Virus record (IMG/VR): IMGVR_UViG_3300045988_058853
Location: 1-46,529 of that record
DNA: 46,529 nucleotides
Strand: one strand, 5' to 3'
Source of the DNA: a virus
Positions 2,780 through 27,899 of this stretch are shown here, piece after piece (the first letter of the stretch is position 1; every line of letters begins with the position of its first letter). The notes under the pieces are model-generated. The model did not search any database and was not told where the DNA came from. It saw only the letters and a list, made by a program, of their open reading frames with translations. The translations under genes and the position numbers were made by a program.

Positions 2780-3100
2780 TTACTTTATTTTTTTATACCA
2801 TCTAATATACGACAATGATTTATACCATTTATTTTGCTTTTTGGTTGCTTCAGTACTTATCTTTTCGCCACCGTCCACAAGTATATATTTTAGCTTGTTT
2901 TCATAATGCAAATATCTCTGATCCATTCCTATTTTTATATTTTTACGTATAATTGATTTCTTTGCAGCCTTAACGCAATACGAGTATTCGCAAAAAACTG
3001 TAAAATCGGATAACGCTTCACTAACATAGCAGTACTTGCATATGTCTGTACTCAAAAGGTTTATTACTGAATCTATTGCCAGTTTATTTATCTTTTTCAT
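2780..3100 (-). CDS. Hypothetical protein (Cys-rich N-terminus)
   Basis: ATG start; 4-nt overlap with the upstream gene; compact operon context. Confidence 0.55.
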   Translation of the reverse strand: MKKINKLAIDSVINLLSTDICKYCYVSEALSDFTVFCEYSYCVKAAKKSIIRKNIKIGMDQRYLHYENKLKYILVDGGEKISTEATKKQNKWYKSLSYIRWYKKIK

Positions 3101-22516: not shown

Positions 22517-23257
22517 TTACTTTTTAGCTTTTTTACTTTGTCTTTTAATCATCTCGAATGCTGAGTAGAAATCAAATACTGTCATGTCCTTTGCGTTTAT
22601 GTGCATTTCCTTCGTGATAAGTAAACACATCTCCGTAAACTCCTTATCTGACTGTATCTCTACCGATTTCTCACCTTGAAAGCATCGAGGCGGATAGTAT
22701 ACTGTCAGTTGATCGGTCAATGACTGAATTTCATCGCCTCTATCCGTCCCGTTTGCTGTTTGATCTAACATTGCGGTTAGTAGCTGCAATTTCAGATCGT
22801 AGTACTCCTTAATCTGAGGGCTGTCACCCATTGAAGGGAAGTACATCGACATCTCACCCTCTATTTTTTTTTTGACCGCCTCGTTTGCCTCTGACAGCTC
22901 CGAAACGGTTACATCTGATAGAATGGTGTGTATTTCCTTCAATTGCTCGTCCGTTATGTGTACCGGATACTCTTTCCCGTCCAATGACTTAACGAACGCA
23001 CCGAATGCAATCATGCCCGGGTGAATGCCGTTCGTTGCCATGTTGAACGACTGTCTGAGGTTTAATAGTTCGGTGTACGTGTGATCTGGGTTAGTCTTGC
23101 AGTACAGAGTAGCCCGTTTCAGATGGGTATCCAATTCCTCAATAGTAGAGCCTACACCGGAATCAACCAACATCAAACGGTTGAACTTTTGATACCTTGC
23201 AATAGGTAGTGAGTCGATGCCCTCGTACAACTCGACTTCATGCCGCCCTACTTTCAT
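22517..23257 (-). CDS. Hypothetical protein in the tail-assembly-chaperone position
   Basis: 246 aa immediately upstream of the tape measure. Contains an A10 tract (plus T-run 22864..22873). SD-like GAAAGGAGGCGAAGA precedes the ATG. Confidence 0.45.
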   Translation of the reverse strand: MKVGRHEVELYEGIDSLPIARYQKFNRLMLVDSGVGSTIEELDTHLKRATLYCKTNPDHTYTELLNLRQSFNMATNGIHPGMIAFGAFVKSLDGKEYPVHITDEQLKEIHTILSDVTVSELSEANEAVKKKIEGEMSMYFPSMGDSPQIKEYYDLKLQLLTAMLDQTANGTDRGDEIQSLTDQLTVYYPPRCFQGEKSVEIQSDKEFTEMCLLITKEMHINAKDMTVFDFYSAFEMIKRQSKKAKK

Positions 23258-23517
23258 TCTTCGCCTCCTTTCTCGTATAGCATTGAGAACGTTTCAGAAT
23301 CGACCGCAAACGTTACTTTCTCACCCATGACAATGTAATCACCTGCATACACCTTCATCGTGCAATCGCTGATTCGGATAGTTGCTATTCCATCTGTGCC
23401 CGACAATAACTCAACGTCCGGAATCAAAACGGCAAGTTCGTACATATCACCGTTAAACTGTACAGCCTCAACAATATAAAACGGAAACAACACACTTACA
23501 TACTTTCTAATTTCCAT
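23254..23517 (-). CDS. Hypothetical protein (87 aa), tail-module associated
   Basis: ATGA overlap with the downstream gene. Confidence 0.5.
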   Translation of the reverse strand: MEIRKYVSVLFPFYIVEAVQFNGDMYELAVLIPDVELLSGTDGIATIRISDCTMKVYAGDYIVMGEKVTFAVDSETFSMLYEKGGEE

Positions 23518-23522
23518 AACTA

Positions 23523-23825
23523 TTAGATTAAGATTCTACAAACAGGTGCAGCAAATAACGGTGTGGCGAGAAACAACGGATCACCGAATAAAATAGCGAA
23601 TACCATCGACATAACGAACGAAGCCCAAAATGACAGACAAAAGTTGCATCCCGCTAACTGGTACATGAAGCTACGATTATATGCAGGGAATATCTTTTTC
23701 ACCCACATATCACCGAACACCTGCAATCTTTCGATTACTCCCCACTTTCTCAATAAACCAACAACAAATGCTGCCATAAACGCCACCAAAAGCGCACAAT
23801 TCAATAGTAAATTTACTTTTTCCAT
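23523..23825 (-). CDS. Small integral membrane protein with a CxxC motif (DUF1360-like?)
   Basis: The track ORF starts at a TTG; the first ATG (23825) gives MEKVNLLLNCALLVAFMAAFVVGLL...LAGCNFCLSFWASFVMSMVFAILF. 3 predicted TM segments. Confidence 0.55.
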   Translation of the reverse strand: MEKVNLLLNCALLVAFMAAFVVGLLRKWGVIERLQVFGDMWVKKIFPAYNRSFMYQLAGCNFCLSFWASFVMSMVFAILFGDPLFLATPLFAAPVCRILI

Positions 23826-23880
23826 ATTATAACATATTAGTTTTGTACAAATGTATGAATAAATAGCGAAAAACAAAACA
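23826..23880 (-). promoter_or_regulatory. Promoter candidate (-7 box TACATTTG = plus 23848..23855)
   Basis: Minus strand gTTTTGtttttcgctatttattcaTACATTTGtacaaaactaatatgttataatATG. Confidence 0.4.
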
Positions 23881-23950
23881 GATTGATAATTAAAAGGTTA
23901 GTTTGAATCTCTCCGAGGCGGGATAAAAAGAGAATGTATAAAAACAAGAA

Positions 23951-23970
23951 AAGGAGGCGTTAACCTCCTA
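23951..23970 (-). terminator. Rho-independent terminator after 23989..24348
   Basis: Stem aggagg/cctcct with a 6-nt loop. The minus strand continues TTTTCTTGTTTTT. Confidence 0.6.
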
Positions 23971-23988
23971 TTCCTTACTTGTTCATAA

Positions 23989-24348
23989 TTAGCTATTTTC
24001 TGTATAGTTCCTATACAAAGCAATCAATGCTGGGTGACATAAACACCCCTTGCCCGGCACAAATTCCATCCAATCGTGGATAGACACCCTTTCACACTGA
24101 ACGTGAGAACGGTTGCCATTAACATTAATGTTTTGCATTTCCGTCCTGATGAAACCACAACTTTCCATATACTCTAAAAAACGTGATGTTTCCTCACCTA
24201 ATAGGTCGTACACATCAACAAAGTCACAAGACATCAACATAGACACCATTTCCTTACCTTCTGCGGGACTTTCTTTCTTGACACGCATAATTGTGTCATT
24301 AATCCGAGAACGTATCTCTGAGAGCATTAAAATAACTTCTTCTTTCAT
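23989..24348 (-). CDS. Hypothetical protein
   Basis: 119 aa, ATG start, followed by a terminator. Confidence 0.55.
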   Translation of the reverse strand: MKEEVILMLSEIRSRINDTIMRVKKESPAEGKEMVSMLMSCDFVDVYDLLGEETSRFLEYMESCGFIRTEMQNINVNGNRSHVQCERVSIHDWMEFVPGKGCLCHPALIALYRNYTENS

Positions 24349-24443
24349 AAGTCAACACTTTTGAATTAAAACTTTAATTTTTAAACTTTCTCTTTAATAG
24401 TTACTAAAAGTAAGTACTATACTTACCAAAAGTAACCATTGAT

Positions 24444-24680
24444 TTAAGTTAATTCTACGTATATCACATCTTCTCTTTCCTCCCCTCTTTCCTCTAATAA
24501 ACACATCACTCTATTACATTTAAACGGAGCATTTGATTTAAGGAAAAAACATTCTCCGCACGAACATTCATTTGACGGGACACACTTCAATAGCTGACAC
24601 TCACCGTCTGTATCTATCAACTCCATTGTTTCACCGACCTCTAAATCTAATGGCAGGCATGATAAATCTAATCTTTTCAT
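24444..24680 (-). CDS. Small Cys4 mini-domain protein (paralog c)
   Basis: LLKCVPSNECSCGECFFLKSNAPFKCNRVMCLL shares C-x-[EK]-C-x-F-x(6-8)-C-x(4)-C with the two upstream genes. Confidence 0.6.
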   Translation of the reverse strand: MKRLDLSCLPLDLEVGETMELIDTDGECQLLKCVPSNECSCGECFFLKSNAPFKCNRVMCLLEERGEEREDVIYVELT

Positions 24681-24895
24681 AACTTTACTTGTTTATAGGT
24701 TTGACACTTTCCCGTAGCCATATCGACACATCGCATAAGCGGGCATATCTTTTTAAACTCCTTTTGCCGGAATAGGCATTCCCTGCATGATATTACATTG
24801 TTACCTTCCATTGCTTGCACTCTGATTGTTTCCCCTGTCACCGGATGATCTATTGTGAAGGTGTCATACAGTTCTACGCTTTTAAATTTTCCCAT
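24677..24895 (-). CDS. Small Cys4 mini-domain protein (paralog b)
   Basis: IRVQAMEGNNVISCRECLFRQKEFKKICPLMRCVD. Confidence 0.6.
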   Translation of the reverse strand: MGKFKSVELYDTFTIDHPVTGETIRVQAMEGNNVISCRECLFRQKEFKKICPLMRCVDMATGKCQTYKQVKL

Positions 24896-25721
24896 CTGAT
24901 ACCATCCTAAATGTTAGTTGTGTTTCATCGTCTATTGTTATGCAACGTACTCCCCAACACAAAAAGCCTAATTCACCACCATAAAAACAGCACTTCTCAC
25001 ATGCTTCCCTATCTTTCGATACCAGTGCTTTCACTTTTCGATCTATCCCCTTATTTGGTACTTCCGCTAAAAATATTTCTCCTTTTTCCGGAACAAACGT
25101 ACCTTTGTCTGATATAGATAATCTACGCATTTTCTTAGATTTAGCCACATACTTTTTAACTAAATCTTTCTGCGCTTCAAGTTCTTTGTTTGTCTTTTCA
25201 TAGTTTAGCTTTAGTTTGTCATTCTCCCGTCTGCACATCTCGTTTTCCTCCGCCAACAATTTTCCGTTTGCTCTCTCAGACTTCAATTCATCTACAATAC
25301 CTCTCACAGAGCTACATTCAACTTCTTTCAGCATTGAGAAAATTTCATCAACTATAAACTTATGATGTCTTTCCGCATTATCTCTTTCTTTTTCAGCTTC
25401 CAATCTCCTTGCCGCTTCTTTCCTCCATTTGTTAAGCAAATAATTGCTTTTCTGTTGTTCCTTCTTATATCTATCACATACATACGAATAGTCCTCTTTC
25501 AGCTTTTCAAGTTCCTGGGAGACTTTCACCTGCTTTCTTTCAGTTCCGGTTATATCGCATACCAGTTTGTGAAAATCGTCACTCTCTGTCAGATACTCCA
25601 AAAGAGCTACTTTCGTTTGGTCTGTCAAACCTGTCTTTGTAGGCGTGGATGATTTACCTACGAATACATCATCTGAATACGTTGTTTCATACATCCATGT
25701 GCTACTTACTTTCTTTTCCAT
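24882..25721 (-). CDS. Coiled-coil protein with a C-terminal Cys4 mini-domain (paralog a)
   Basis: Central heptad-like EKLKEDY...RRLEAEKERDNAERHHK...NDKLKLNYEKTNKELEAQKDLVKK. C-term KVKALVSKDREACEKCCFYGGELGFLCWGVRCIT. Confidence 0.6.
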   Translation of the reverse strand: MEKKVSSTWMYETTYSDDVFVGKSSTPTKTGLTDQTKVALLEYLTESDDFHKLVCDITGTERKQVKVSQELEKLKEDYSYVCDRYKKEQQKSNYLLNKWRKEAARRLEAEKERDNAERHHKFIVDEIFSMLKEVECSSVRGIVDELKSERANGKLLAEENEMCRRENDKLKLNYEKTNKELEAQKDLVKKYVAKSKKMRRLSISDKGTFVPEKGEIFLAEVPNKGIDRKVKALVSKDREACEKCCFYGGELGFLCWGVRCITIDDETQLTFRMVSDGKI

Positions 25722-25725
25722 GTTA

Positions 25726-26481
25726 TTACAATTTTACGTTATTAATTAATTTTAAAAAGTGATCTCTACCTTTTGCAGTTACCAGTGTTTGAGTCCCTGC
25801 CTTTTCACCTTTCGCCCATTCTTTCAACTCCAAATAGTTTCCAACATACTGGGCTATTGGCTTCAACTTTCCTTTCTGATCTCGGTATATGTACTTCTTA
25901 TCAATCAGGAGAAAGATAAGTGCTTTTTCAGACACGCCTAACAGCTTTGCTGTATCTCTGAAATTGGTTAGTCCGTTCCGGTCTACTATTTCATCAAAGT
26001 ATTCGGCTTTGGGCTTCATATCTTTATTCTCTATCTGCAACCGTTCGTTTTCCTCTACCTGTACGAGTAGTTCCTTTAAAGCCTCTTTGTACGTTTGAGG
26101 CAATTTAGGTTGATTGTCCATTAGAGCGTTTTCCAATTTTTCAATATAAGAAATAACTGCTTTACGGACAAACTTACTTTCACGTACTAAAACCTGCTTT
26201 GCTTGTGATAGAGTCAACTCAAACATTGGGTATTCTTGACCGTTCTGAGGGTGTTTATATAGGGTAGGCAGAATTTTCTGCATACCTATTTCCTCGTCAA
26301 ATTCATCTCTAATAACATCTAATAAAGTTTTATGTTTCAATTTAGTTCTGTCACCTTCCTGCTCTCTAAACAAATTGATTTGTTTCAATAACTCCAAAGA
26401 TGTTATTTTCTCCTGCGTACGTTCGCCAACTTTGATTAATTCATTCATTTGTTTTCTTGTTTTTATTATTGCGGGTGACAT
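25726..26481 (-). CDS. KilAC-domain antirepressor (paralog 3 of 5) with a divergent N-domain
   Basis: C-term KPKAEYFDEIVDRNGLTNFRDTAKLLGVSEKALIFLLIDKKYIYRD...LELKEWAKGEKAGTQTLVT is close to the paralog 2 C-term. The track start (26517) is a TTG. ATG at 26481. An alternative ATG at 26448 gives MNELIKVGE, matching the leader of paralogs 1, 2 and 4. Confidence 0.75.
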   Translation of the reverse strand: MSPAIIKTRKQMNELIKVGERTQEKITSLELLKQINLFREQEGDRTKLKHKTLLDVIRDEFDEEIGMQKILPTLYKHPQNGQEYPMFELTLSQAKQVLVRESKFVRKAVISYIEKLENALMDNQPKLPQTYKEALKELLVQVEENERLQIENKDMKPKAEYFDEIVDRNGLTNFRDTAKLLGVSEKALIFLLIDKKYIYRDQKGKLKPIAQYVGNYLELKEWAKGEKAGTQTLVTAKGRDHFLKLINNVKL

Positions 26482-26506
26482 TTCTGCCACCCTGTTAACT
26501 ACTTGA

Positions 26507-26737
26507 TTACTTACCAAAATCTATTACTATGTTAATACAATGTTTGTTGCAGTCAATTGTGAATGGTACATTGTGAACGTTACAAGCATGAAGAATAGCA
26601 TTCGTTAAAACTGTGTTCTCTTTTCCGTAACCGCATGATACTCCTTCATCCGAACATTGTGCACACCCATCACCACCAAGCAATTTATACATTGCATAAA
26701 CACTCTCACAAAATTGTTTTTTAGTCATTGTTGCCAT
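26507..26737 (-). CDS. Small Cys-rich protein (76 aa)
   Basis: First gene after cassette C; GGDGCAQCSDEGVSCGYG...HACNVH...IDCNKHC. Confidence 0.55.
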   Translation of the reverse strand: MATMTKKQFCESVYAMYKLLGGDGCAQCSDEGVSCGYGKENTVLTNAILHACNVHNVPFTIDCNKHCINIVIDFGK

Positions 26738-26846
26738 AATTGTTGTTTTTTAATTGTTACTACTTTGTTTCCTTTTGACATTGCAAATATAAGCATAACT
26801 TTTAAAATGCAAAGCAAAACTTTAATCTTTAACACTTATTTAACAC
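26738..26846 (-). promoter_or_regulatory. Promoter/leader cassette copy C (-7 box TATATTTG = plus 26784..26791)
   Basis: tttttaattgttactactttgtttccttttgacattgcaaatataa (1 mismatch to copy D over 46 nt) and ttaatctttaacacttatttaacacaaaa (29 nt identical to D). Confidence 0.65.
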
Positions 26847-26880
26847 AAAAGGGGATATATACATATATGTATACTCCCCT
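26847..26880 (-). terminator. Rho-independent terminator after the head/neck genes
   Basis: Long bulged stem ggggatatata / tatgtata(c)tcccc. The minus strand continues TTTTG. Confidence 0.6.
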
Positions 26881-26887
26881 TGTCGTA

Positions 26888-27457
26888 TTATGGATAACAC
26901 GCCTCCGGTGCAATCATATCACACACAAAACGTAGGCAGGCATAAGGATAGACGTAGAATTGATTGTCGGTTTTCTCAATACTAAAGCCGTCATACACAT
27001 TCTTTGCGTCATTAAATATCCGCTTAACGTTCAAACCTCCGTATGACAATTCAAGTTCATGCGTTAACGCTCGCAATATGCGTTGTTTGACGAACTCAAC
27101 ATTGTACCCCTCTGCACCGGGAATTGTACGGGTGTCGAACCAGAATATAATACTCACCTCACCCTTCAGATCACCGAAACCAAAGTCCCCATTCCCCTCG
27201 TAGTCCTGCGAGTCATGAATATAGAAAAAGCAGGTGTTGCCGTACTTATCATTTGGCTCTAACCTCAAATAGTCTTTATCCTTGTAATAAACGGACGGAG
27301 TGATGAACTTTCCTTTCTCCGTTCGCTCCACTAACTTATATGCGCTTCCAAACGCATAATTTAGCCATTGTAGCGACTTTACAAGGCTAAACTGTACATT
27401 TCCTATCACTTCATCGAAAAGTACCGCATTCGGCTTTAAAATAGCTCTATCTTTCAT
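26888..27457 (-). CDS. Hypothetical structural (neck/head-tail joining position) protein
   Basis: 189 aa; positional only. Confidence 0.45.
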   Translation of the reverse strand: MKDRAILKPNAVLFDEVIGNVQFSLVKSLQWLNYAFGSAYKLVERTEKGKFITPSVYYKDKDYLRLEPNDKYGNTCFFYIHDSQDYEGNGDFGFGDLKGEVSIIFWFDTRTIPGAEGYNVEFVKQRILRALTHELELSYGGLNVKRIFNDAKNVYDGFSIEKTDNQFYVYPYACLRFVCDMIAPEACYP

Positions 27458-27899
27458 TTAGTATCTCCTTAACTTTTTTTGCTGCTTCATCTTTCACATA
27501 ATCGTTAATAAATTCGGCAAGCGATTCATTAGTTAAACCAAATATCTCGGCACCGTATTTCTTGATTAACCAGTCCGTTTTTTCGTCTGAGGCTTTAATA
27601 TAGAATCTGTCCTCAGCCGTTTCAACGTAAAAAGAGTCGTAAAACTCCCCTGTGTCCTTTAGAGTTACCCGGTCATACGGTTGCCGCTTCTCTATCTTAA
27701 CCTTTATAGTGAAAGGGCTGTACGGTCTATATTCGTCTATCCGGACCCCCAGCCTGTTTACCCCTTTGGCGAATAGCTGATCTTGTGCGTTCATGTCGAT
27801 AAGAATGTTATCGTTATCCCGCACAATTTCCTTTGCTATTCGTCCTGAGTCTAAAGCTTCTTTCACTTTCTTAACTCTATCTAATAAGTTTGTTATCAT
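27447..27899 (-). CDS. Putative head-tail joining protein (HK97 gp10-like pattern)
   Basis: 150 aa; ...DRVTLKDTGEFYDSFYVE... resembles head-tail adaptor/morphogenesis families; memory-based. Confidence 0.4.
   Translation of the reverse strand: MITNLLDRVKKVKEALDSGRIAKEIVRDNDNILIDMNAQDQLFAKGVNRLGVRIDEYRPYSPFTIKVKIEKRQPYDRVTLKDTGEFYDSFYVETAEDRFYIKASDEKTDWLIKKYGAEIFGLTNESLAEFINDYVKDEAAKKVKEILNER

Follow-up and report, generated by a model that had tools for sequence, protein, structure and literature searches.

Phage morons, following the concept from HK97 and HK022, are extra genes that lie between conserved late genes and are equipped with their own promoter and terminator. Phage accessory proteins also include small zinc-ribbon or zinc-knuckle proteins with four cysteines (Cys4), such as the Lar restriction-alleviation family (PF14354) and Mu Com, which are used here as a lead only. 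Here, we describe a locus that bears comparison with both, located in a viral DNA record of 46,529 nucleotides (IMG/VR record IMGVR_UViG_3300045988_058853, positions 1 to 46,529), the whole of which is referred to as the window. Three neighbouring genes in the window, encoding proteins of 279, 72 and 78 amino acids (aa), share a Cys4 domain. We conclude with high confidence that this domain represents a real, unclassified protein family confined to gut Bacteroidales phages, and that its copies in the window form a paralogous array within a moron-like cassette.

All three open reading frames (ORFs) carry the motif C-x2-C-x-F-x8-C-x4-C. The original prediction, made from the letters of the window, had allowed six to eight residues between the phenylalanine and the third cysteine; the spacing is exactly eight in all three, while the ORFs and the peptides that it quoted were exact. 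Among the 685 six-frame ORFs of the window the motif is found in these three alone, compared with a mean of 0.045 matches (maximum 2) in 2000 residue-shuffled ORF sets. The 279-aa and 72-aa genes overlap by 14 nucleotides (nt) and the stop codon of the 72-aa gene overlaps the start codon of the 78-aa gene by 4 nt (ATGA), so that the three genes are read as a single operon. Pairwise ratios of non-synonymous to synonymous substitution rates (dN/dS) were 0.00-0.16 for the 72-aa gene, the best conserved of the three, against 8 orthologues. Against their own orthologues the 78-aa gene gave 0.17-0.66 and the C-terminal domain of the 279-aa protein 0.21-0.96. These values indicate three genuine coding genes, two of which are evolving fast.

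In the 279-aa protein the Cys4 domain occupies the C-terminus. An internal ATG at 25130 (Met198) corresponds to the start codon of a free-standing 80-84-aa gene in related phages, and free-standing relatives (P0033, P0039 and others) begin MRRLSISDKG; on this alignment, Met198 is the ancestral start of the domain. The boundary proposed originally, at position 25109, corresponds to residue 205. The preceding ~197 residues are rich in charged residues and probably form a coiled coil; a search of PDB sequences with this N-terminal part (197 aa) returned noise only.

The resemblance between the three copies is weak at the level of single sequences, with pairwise BLASTP E-values of 0.022, 0.34 and 5e-4, because the copies are only ~20-25% identical. 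Comparison of separately built orthologue profiles with hhalign gave P = 7e-4 for the 72-aa versus the 78-aa protein, 3.5e-8 for the 72-aa protein versus the 279-aa C-terminus, and 1.9e-4 for the 78-aa protein versus the 279-aa C-terminus. A hidden Markov model (HMM) was then built from 24 relatives, all of them from outside the clade of this phage, and it matched the 78-aa protein at E = 7e-12, the 72-aa protein at E = 2e-8 and the 279-aa protein at E = 7e-8, in the last case within the C-terminal ~50 residues; the next ORF of the window reached only E = 0.017. That ORF, at 2780-3100(-) and 106 aa long, was considered as a fourth copy and rejected, as only the cysteine stretch aligns, the invariant phenylalanine and the preceding hairpin are absent, and the Cys4 pattern is a different one (CKYC ... 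CEYSYC); it is probably an unrelated zinc protein. The poor BLASTP values (0.022, 0.34) are what chance resemblance among unrelated small ORFs would give, yet the out-of-clade HMM, the profile comparisons and the motif-shuffle counts refute this explanation, and related phages have dozens more copies in the corresponding cassette; we regard its probability as negligible. The three genes are thus adjacent, on the same strand and mutually homologous, and the claim that they share one paralogous Cys4 module holds on the out-of-clade HMM and the profile-profile P-values. The original prediction had further proposed a tandem duplication; the tandem array of paralogues is there, but an identity of 20-25% indicates that the paralogues are old and were not generated by a recent event.

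Conservation within the domain is concentrated at the cysteines. The four are invariant in each of three alignments (19, 32 and 38 sequences), and over the 38 diverse sequences C41, C44, C55 and C60 (numbering of the 78-aa protein) are the sole invariant columns, which is the pattern of four ligands expected of a structural Cys4 zinc site. Within the clade, Phe46 never varies in the alignments of 19 and 32 sequences, nor does the glycine of a G-E turn in that of 32; several distant members have another residue in place of Phe46, and distant members also replace the glycine. The consensus of the wider family reads h-x-V-G-E-x-F ... G-x-x-h-x-C-V ... C-x2-C-x-F-x(5-12)-C-x4-C-x(3-4)-R-x-D-x3-V-I-F-K-E-V.

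An AlphaFold2 model of the 78-aa protein, made with the 38-sequence diverse alignment, reached a mean predicted local distance difference test score (pLDDT) of 85.4 and a predicted template modelling score of 0.72. The strands of this model lie at residues 2-5, 18-22, 28-35 and 72-76, and between strands 3 and 4 the chain makes short helical turns about the cysteines. The domain is accordingly predicted to be a small antiparallel beta-sheet, in which a G-E/D turn is followed by a hairpin and the C-terminal strand closes the sheet, and the cysteine-rich part is predicted to be an insert of ~35 residues between the third and last strands. The beta strands foreseen around the Cys4 motif therefore appear in the confident model as a four-stranded sheet with a cysteine-rich insert, while the small barrel that had been suggested is not seen as a closed barrel. 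The fold is confident for the 78-aa protein; the 72-aa protein, modelled with a shallow clade-only alignment, reached a pLDDT of 44 and its model was set aside.

The four invariant cysteines of the insert most likely hold one zinc ion. Rubredoxin-like iron sites likewise have four invariant cysteines as their signature, the phage infects an anaerobe, and one member gave a stray weak match to HIPIP (E = 0.057), observations that would suit an iron or iron-sulfur centre, or else two disulfides, conferring a redox role. This concerns the chemistry alone and is compatible with any functional reading. We consider it improbable, since no consistent match to iron-sulfur or rubredoxin families was found over the 38 members, and since C-x2-C ... 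C-x4-C in a short loop insert of small cytoplasmic proteins, in which no signal peptide was seen, is most simply explained by structural zinc, as in zinc knuckles generally.

Profile searches, which had been named beforehand as a possible refutation, placed the domain in no well-characterised family, and the other such possibility, structure predictions without a common fold, did not materialise either. The three window proteins and all members of the 32- and 38-member alignments were scanned. In neither Pfam nor NCBIfam was there a match above the cut-off or a family matched by more than three members; the best stray E-value was 0.016 in Pfam and 8.9e-4 in NCBIfam, the latter being that of one member to an unrelated mercury-transport family. 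Two family profiles run against PDB sequences with hmmsearch gave 0 matches at E ≤ 10, and Foldseek of the 78-aa model against the PDB gave a best E-value of 0.69 with template modelling (TM) scores of at most 0.36. Thus, no family can be assigned from Pfam, NCBIfam, PDB sequences or Foldseek against PDB structures. Against BFVD, Foldseek of the same model recovered family members only, with TM scores up to 0.87, namely paralogues from B124-14 and vB_BfrS_23, a protein of a crAss-like phage and proteins of uncultured gut phages, and members with 19-22% identity still superposed with TM scores of 0.69-0.79.

The sole catalogued profile with any signal is phrog_33085 (PHROGs v4, unknown function); a PHROGs scan of the three proteins and the family alignments yielded nothing usable beyond it. 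The 78-aa protein matched it weakly (E = 0.11) and the 72-aa and 279-aa proteins not at all, while distant family members matched at E-values from 4e-6 to 5e-3 over positions ~20-69 of 74, which cover the cysteine-rich part and the last strand. Because phrog_33085 is unannotated it adds no functional knowledge, and from the profile searches the family is absent from the catalogues beyond this one entry. The literature on B124-14, B40-8 and vB_BfrS_23 is silent on these ORFs, and a literature search on anti-defence zinc proteins of Bacteroides phages returned nothing relevant.

The original prediction had proposed a scan of gut phage proteomes with an HMM of the motif. Word-indexed protein searches gave almost solely the same phage clade, and distant members were reached by an exhaustive profile search; with HMMER, 74 proteins at E < 1e-3 were found among 1.84 billion representatives at 50% identity, the traceable ones in gut Bacteroidales phages or a prophage-like region. 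One of the 74 (P0132, 1025 aa with 8 repeats and no cysteine) was rejected as spurious, as it matches the hairpin part only. About half of the 74 belong to the B124-14-like clade. The traced remainder come from other Bacteroides and Parabacteroides phages, the crAss-like phage cr108_1 and phage contigs of 83-140 kb from gut metagenomes, together with a relative in a prophage-like region of the Segatella copri HDE04 chromosome (NZ_CP152346.1, ~1.456 Mb; locus L027). This last copy breaks off at a stop codon that follows the C-x2-C-x-F motif, and its region also has genes for a C5 methylase and YopX; the family is thus represented in elements integrated in Prevotellaceae as well. Among 185,579 species-representative genomes none had a close relative of the 72-aa protein. 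Some family proteins hold two or three copies of the domain, and fusions occur, one to a region with a borderline DUF3310 match and one to other phage-only domains.

The window derives from a Bacteroides siphophage of the B124-14/B40-8 group, with all genes on the minus strand, and the region around the array is 96% identical to BK649P1 and 77-93% identical to other Bacteroides fragilis and Bacteroides ovatus phages. In the B124-14-like clade the copies are always found in one variable island inside the late tail-gene block, bordered on one side by a tail-region gene of 189 aa and on the other by a gene that is annotated as tail-assembly chaperone in UZM3, with the tape-measure gene beyond; in UZM3 and vB_BfrS_23 these neighbours carry the annotations tail protein, tail assembly chaperone and tape measure. 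Among relatives the island spans 3.5-4.9 kb and differs in gene content, and in comparison with close relatives its flanks are 85-96% identical whereas the island itself is covered to only 57-78%. Its content therefore varies between otherwise collinear close relatives, which is one of the properties by which a moron is recognised. In the window the order is promoter motif, 76-aa gene, 263-aa Ant/KilAC gene, 279-aa, 72-aa, 78-aa and 119-aa genes, and terminator-like hairpin (Table 1). No Pfam or PHROG match was found for the 76-aa protein. Ant/Rha proteins are encoded in related cassettes, one of which also has a gene for an N6/N4 DNA methyltransferase.

Table 1. Coordinates of the array, its cassette and the modification genes near other domain copies. 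Positions refer to the window, except in the last five rows, where they refer to the locus named.
Feature	Position	Strand	Remarks
Bacteroides-type promoter motif (TTTG ... TAnnTTTG)	26784-26818	-	upstream of first cassette gene
76-aa Cys-rich protein	26507-26737	-	first cassette gene; 7 Cys; unrelated to Cys4 domain
263-aa Ant-like protein with KilAC domain	25726-26517	-	second cassette gene; Pfam ANT E 8.7e-22; phrog_63 E 7e-39
279-aa protein	24882-25721	-	Cys4 domain at residues 198-279, C-terminal
Cys4 part of 279-aa gene	24885-25130	-	starts at internal ATG (Met198)
72-aa single-domain protein	24677-24895	-	Cys37, Cys40, Phe42, Cys51, Cys56; basic, isoelectric point (pI) 8.9
78-aa single-domain protein	24444-24680	-	Cys41, Cys44, Phe46, Cys55, Cys60; acidic, pI 4.3
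119-aa protein, phrog_34779 (unknown function)	23989-24348	-	last cassette gene; E 3e-26
Terminator-like hairpin and T-run	23952-23969	-	20 nt past 119-aa gene; proposed cassette end
Second Bacteroides-type promoter motif	23848-23877	-	transcription would restart toward tail-assembly genes
Modification gene near a domain copy, locus L014	5798-6433		
Modification gene near a domain copy, locus L017	4525-5004		
Modification gene near a domain copy, locus L019	3083-4558		
Modification gene near a domain copy, locus L021	1-1511		
Modification gene near a domain copy, locus L027	334-1152		

The promoter assignments follow the motif TTTG-N-TAnnTTTG, which we take to be the B. fragilis promoter consensus. 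The window contains 10 matches where 3.5 would be expected, nine of the ten on the coding strand, and nine related loci have the motif of the cassette start at the corresponding border. A sigma-70 promoter scan was discarded in favour of this consensus, as its hits were not enriched and the model is not applicable to Bacteroides. Both promoter motifs are near-identical over nine related phages (among them L001, L003, L006 and L010-L014) and bracket the island. Read from these motifs, conserved regulatory borders enclose variable cargo, and the motifs together with the variable content predict a moron-like arrangement.

Given that the genes are embedded in the block for late morphogenesis, with tail genes on one side and the genes for tail-assembly chaperone and tape measure on the other, a role as tail-associated structural or assembly factors might be supposed. 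We judge this very improbable. Phages with near-identical tail genes have 0-7 copies, with none in the B40-8 record, the cassette has its own promoter motif, and homologues elsewhere are located in early or replication regions, a placement that argues against a virion role. Moreover, the virion proteome reported for B124-14 comprises only ORF38, ORF39 and ORF42, although that analysis was shallow and missed the tail fibre too.

The termini of several records, B40-8 (L005, FJ008913), BF486P1 (L010), BF10P3 and BF344P1, fall in or beside the island, and the authors of the B124-14 genome linearised it between ORF29 and ORF30 in order to match B40-8. The island could be the site of the physical genome ends, in which case the cassette would be on the DNA injected first, or the coincidence may be an artefact of assembly. 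The B40-8 record possibly has no domain copy because it ends at the island.

Within the clade the array is variable in several respects. The island of related phages contains from one to seven copies or fragments (none in the B40-8 record), and in B124-14 five adjacent genes hold six full copies, accompanied by a 42-aa fragment. Metagenomic hybrids combine two paralogues, one supplying the N-terminal and the other the C-terminal half (P0097, P0102, P0105, P0118, P0122, P0147) and truncated fusions join neighbouring copies (P0089, P0093, P0094); judged by their sequences, both appear to be the products expected of unequal recombination within the array. In BF698P1 (L003 2548-2813) the orthologue of the 78-aa gene is frameshifted and split into two overlapping frames, which suggests that individual paralogues are dispensable.

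The fusion of the module to a putative coiled coil, noted originally, is present in the window and is a local event. Residues 1-175 of the 279-aa protein are 93% identical to a coiled-coil-like protein of 277 aa in the relative L012 that is without the domain. In L012 (6678-7799), L013 and L014 the coiled-coil-like protein has 277-280 aa and a different C-terminal tail of ~100 aa, and the Cys4 domain is encoded by a separate 80-aa gene that lies 45 nt downstream. Since the genes are separate in these close relatives, the 279-aa gene of the window is read as an in-frame deletion fusion, itself a product of the kind that unequal recombination in the array would yield.

Sequence variability is unevenly distributed along the domain. 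Within orthologue groups entropy is low in the N-terminal sheet and peaks just before the first cysteine, between the phenylalanine and the third cysteine, and after the fourth cysteine. Net charge is not conserved (pI 4.2-9.6), with acidic, basic and near-neutral copies in the window itself, and acidic members make up 19 of the 32 distant and 113 of the 174 clade sequences. Hypervariable loops, varying copy number and hybrid genes together bear out the earlier suggestion that the family is diversifying.

Outside the B124-14-like clade the domain gene is found in early, replication or modification regions, with neighbouring genes for helicase, single-stranded DNA-binding protein (SSB), DnaD-like protein, YopX, dUTPase and DNA methyltransferase. 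In BK735P1 the start of the domain gene overlaps the stop of a Dam methyltransferase gene and an SNF2 helicase gene follows downstream; in BT24 it is near a DNA methyltransferase gene; in PD491P1 it adjoins genes for a Gp3-like protein and a DnaD/helix-turn-helix protein; in C3_41T2LP it is near genes for polymerase, dUTPase and SSB; and at another locus it lies downstream of genes for an N6/N4 methylase and Mom. DNA-modification genes (N6/N4, Dam and C5 methyltransferases, Mom) recur within a few kb of copies in unrelated phages (Table 1). This neighbourhood may reflect a link to restriction evasion, or it may merely reflect the gene content of early regions.

These settings bring in the principal alternative for function, namely that the domain is a nucleic-acid-binding zinc finger and the proteins are small regulators or accessory factors of phage replication, modification or transcription, with the paralogues recognising different sites instead of host proteins. 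Besides the replication and modification modules outside the clade, this is favoured by the existence of multi-copy and fusion proteins, including the one with a borderline match to DUF3310, by the layout of the window array, which would be co-transcribed with the Ant/KilAC protein, and by the strongly basic character of some members (pI 9-9.6). However, the unconserved charge, often acidic as in the 78-aa protein of the window (pI 4.3), argues against one shared nucleic-acid ligand, no match to DNA- or RNA-binding zinc-finger families was obtained, and host-takeover genes are just as typically found in the early region. On balance we think a nucleic-acid-binding function unlikely.

The reading that we favour, to which we assign a probability of roughly 0.4, is that the domain is a zinc-stabilised scaffold whose variable loops bind strain-variable host components, acting in counter-defence or takeover from an accessory cassette. 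Metal binding, protein binding and the counter-defence or takeover role are all properties that we infer. According to this model, the sheet and the metal site would form a rigid scaffold and the loops flanking the cysteines would provide a binding surface. Each paralogue would bind a different host macromolecule or variant, most likely a defence factor or another strain-variable factor. Recombination between paralogues would reshape the array, as in an arms race, and the copies would be co-transcribed with the Ant-like protein. A more far-reaching version, which we hold to be doubtful, is that the domain is a new metal-stabilised fold and the array a diversifying repertoire of mini-binders renewed by internal recombination, each paralogue neutralising a different host defence or strain-specific factor, such that the array would shape host range at the level of strains.

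Several points weigh against the scaffold reading. The domain has no annotated homologue that would point to a target. Relaxed constraint, as opposed to selection, could account for the high variability; no dN/dS value reaches 1, the values stem from pairwise comparisons of short sequences, and the strong conservation of the 72-aa paralogue (dN/dS ≤ 0.16) is not what an arms race would lead one to expect. A confident model was obtained for one of the three proteins only, and that the four thiolates meet at one site is a prediction. Foldseek has limited power for metal-stabilised domains of ~70 residues, and with domains this small a distant relationship to some known zinc-finger fold is conceivable. 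For the cassette, the promoter assignment is a consensus match, and the hairpin is the sole such site in 23200-27500 but is not enriched, as shuffled sequences average 2.5.

B124-14-like phages are abundant and specific to the human gut, serve as markers of faecal source and have been considered for therapy against B. fragilis, and the determinants of their very narrow host ranges are largely unexplained. A phage-restricted, multi-copy, recombining family of small putative metal-binding proteins is a concrete candidate for host takeover or counter-defence, and if the mini-binder version were true the array would be a determinant of these narrow, strain-level host ranges. The family merits a Pfam-type entry and, being compact, confidently predicted and without structural neighbour, is an attractive target for structure determination.

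Among known systems, anti-defence islands (anti-CRISPR or anti-restriction) resemble the locus by context: small, fast-evolving ORFans are clustered and their content varies between close relatives, and the array of the window adjoins regulators (Ant/Rha) and, in relatives, DNA methyltransferases. The literature searched contained no anti-defence protein from phages of this host group, and to our knowledge none has been described for Bacteroides-group phages. The proteins share with Lar and Com a length of 60-80 aa, four cysteines and a place in accessory or early phage regions; the latter, however, are C-x2-C ... C-x2-C ribbons that are without the preceding beta-hairpin or the invariant phenylalanine, and none of the 38 members matched the zinc-finger or Lar models of Pfam. 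In arrangement the locus resembles morons, in that the cassette is variable between conserved tail genes, has a promoter motif upstream and a terminator-like hairpin at its end, and differs in cargo between close relatives. It departs from them in comprising six genes, including a three-copy paralogous array, instead of a single gene, and as B124-14-like phages are reported to be lytic, the classic rationale of a benefit to the lysogen does not apply. By analogy, the family would join a known class, that of the small metal-binding accessory proteins carried in phage morons.

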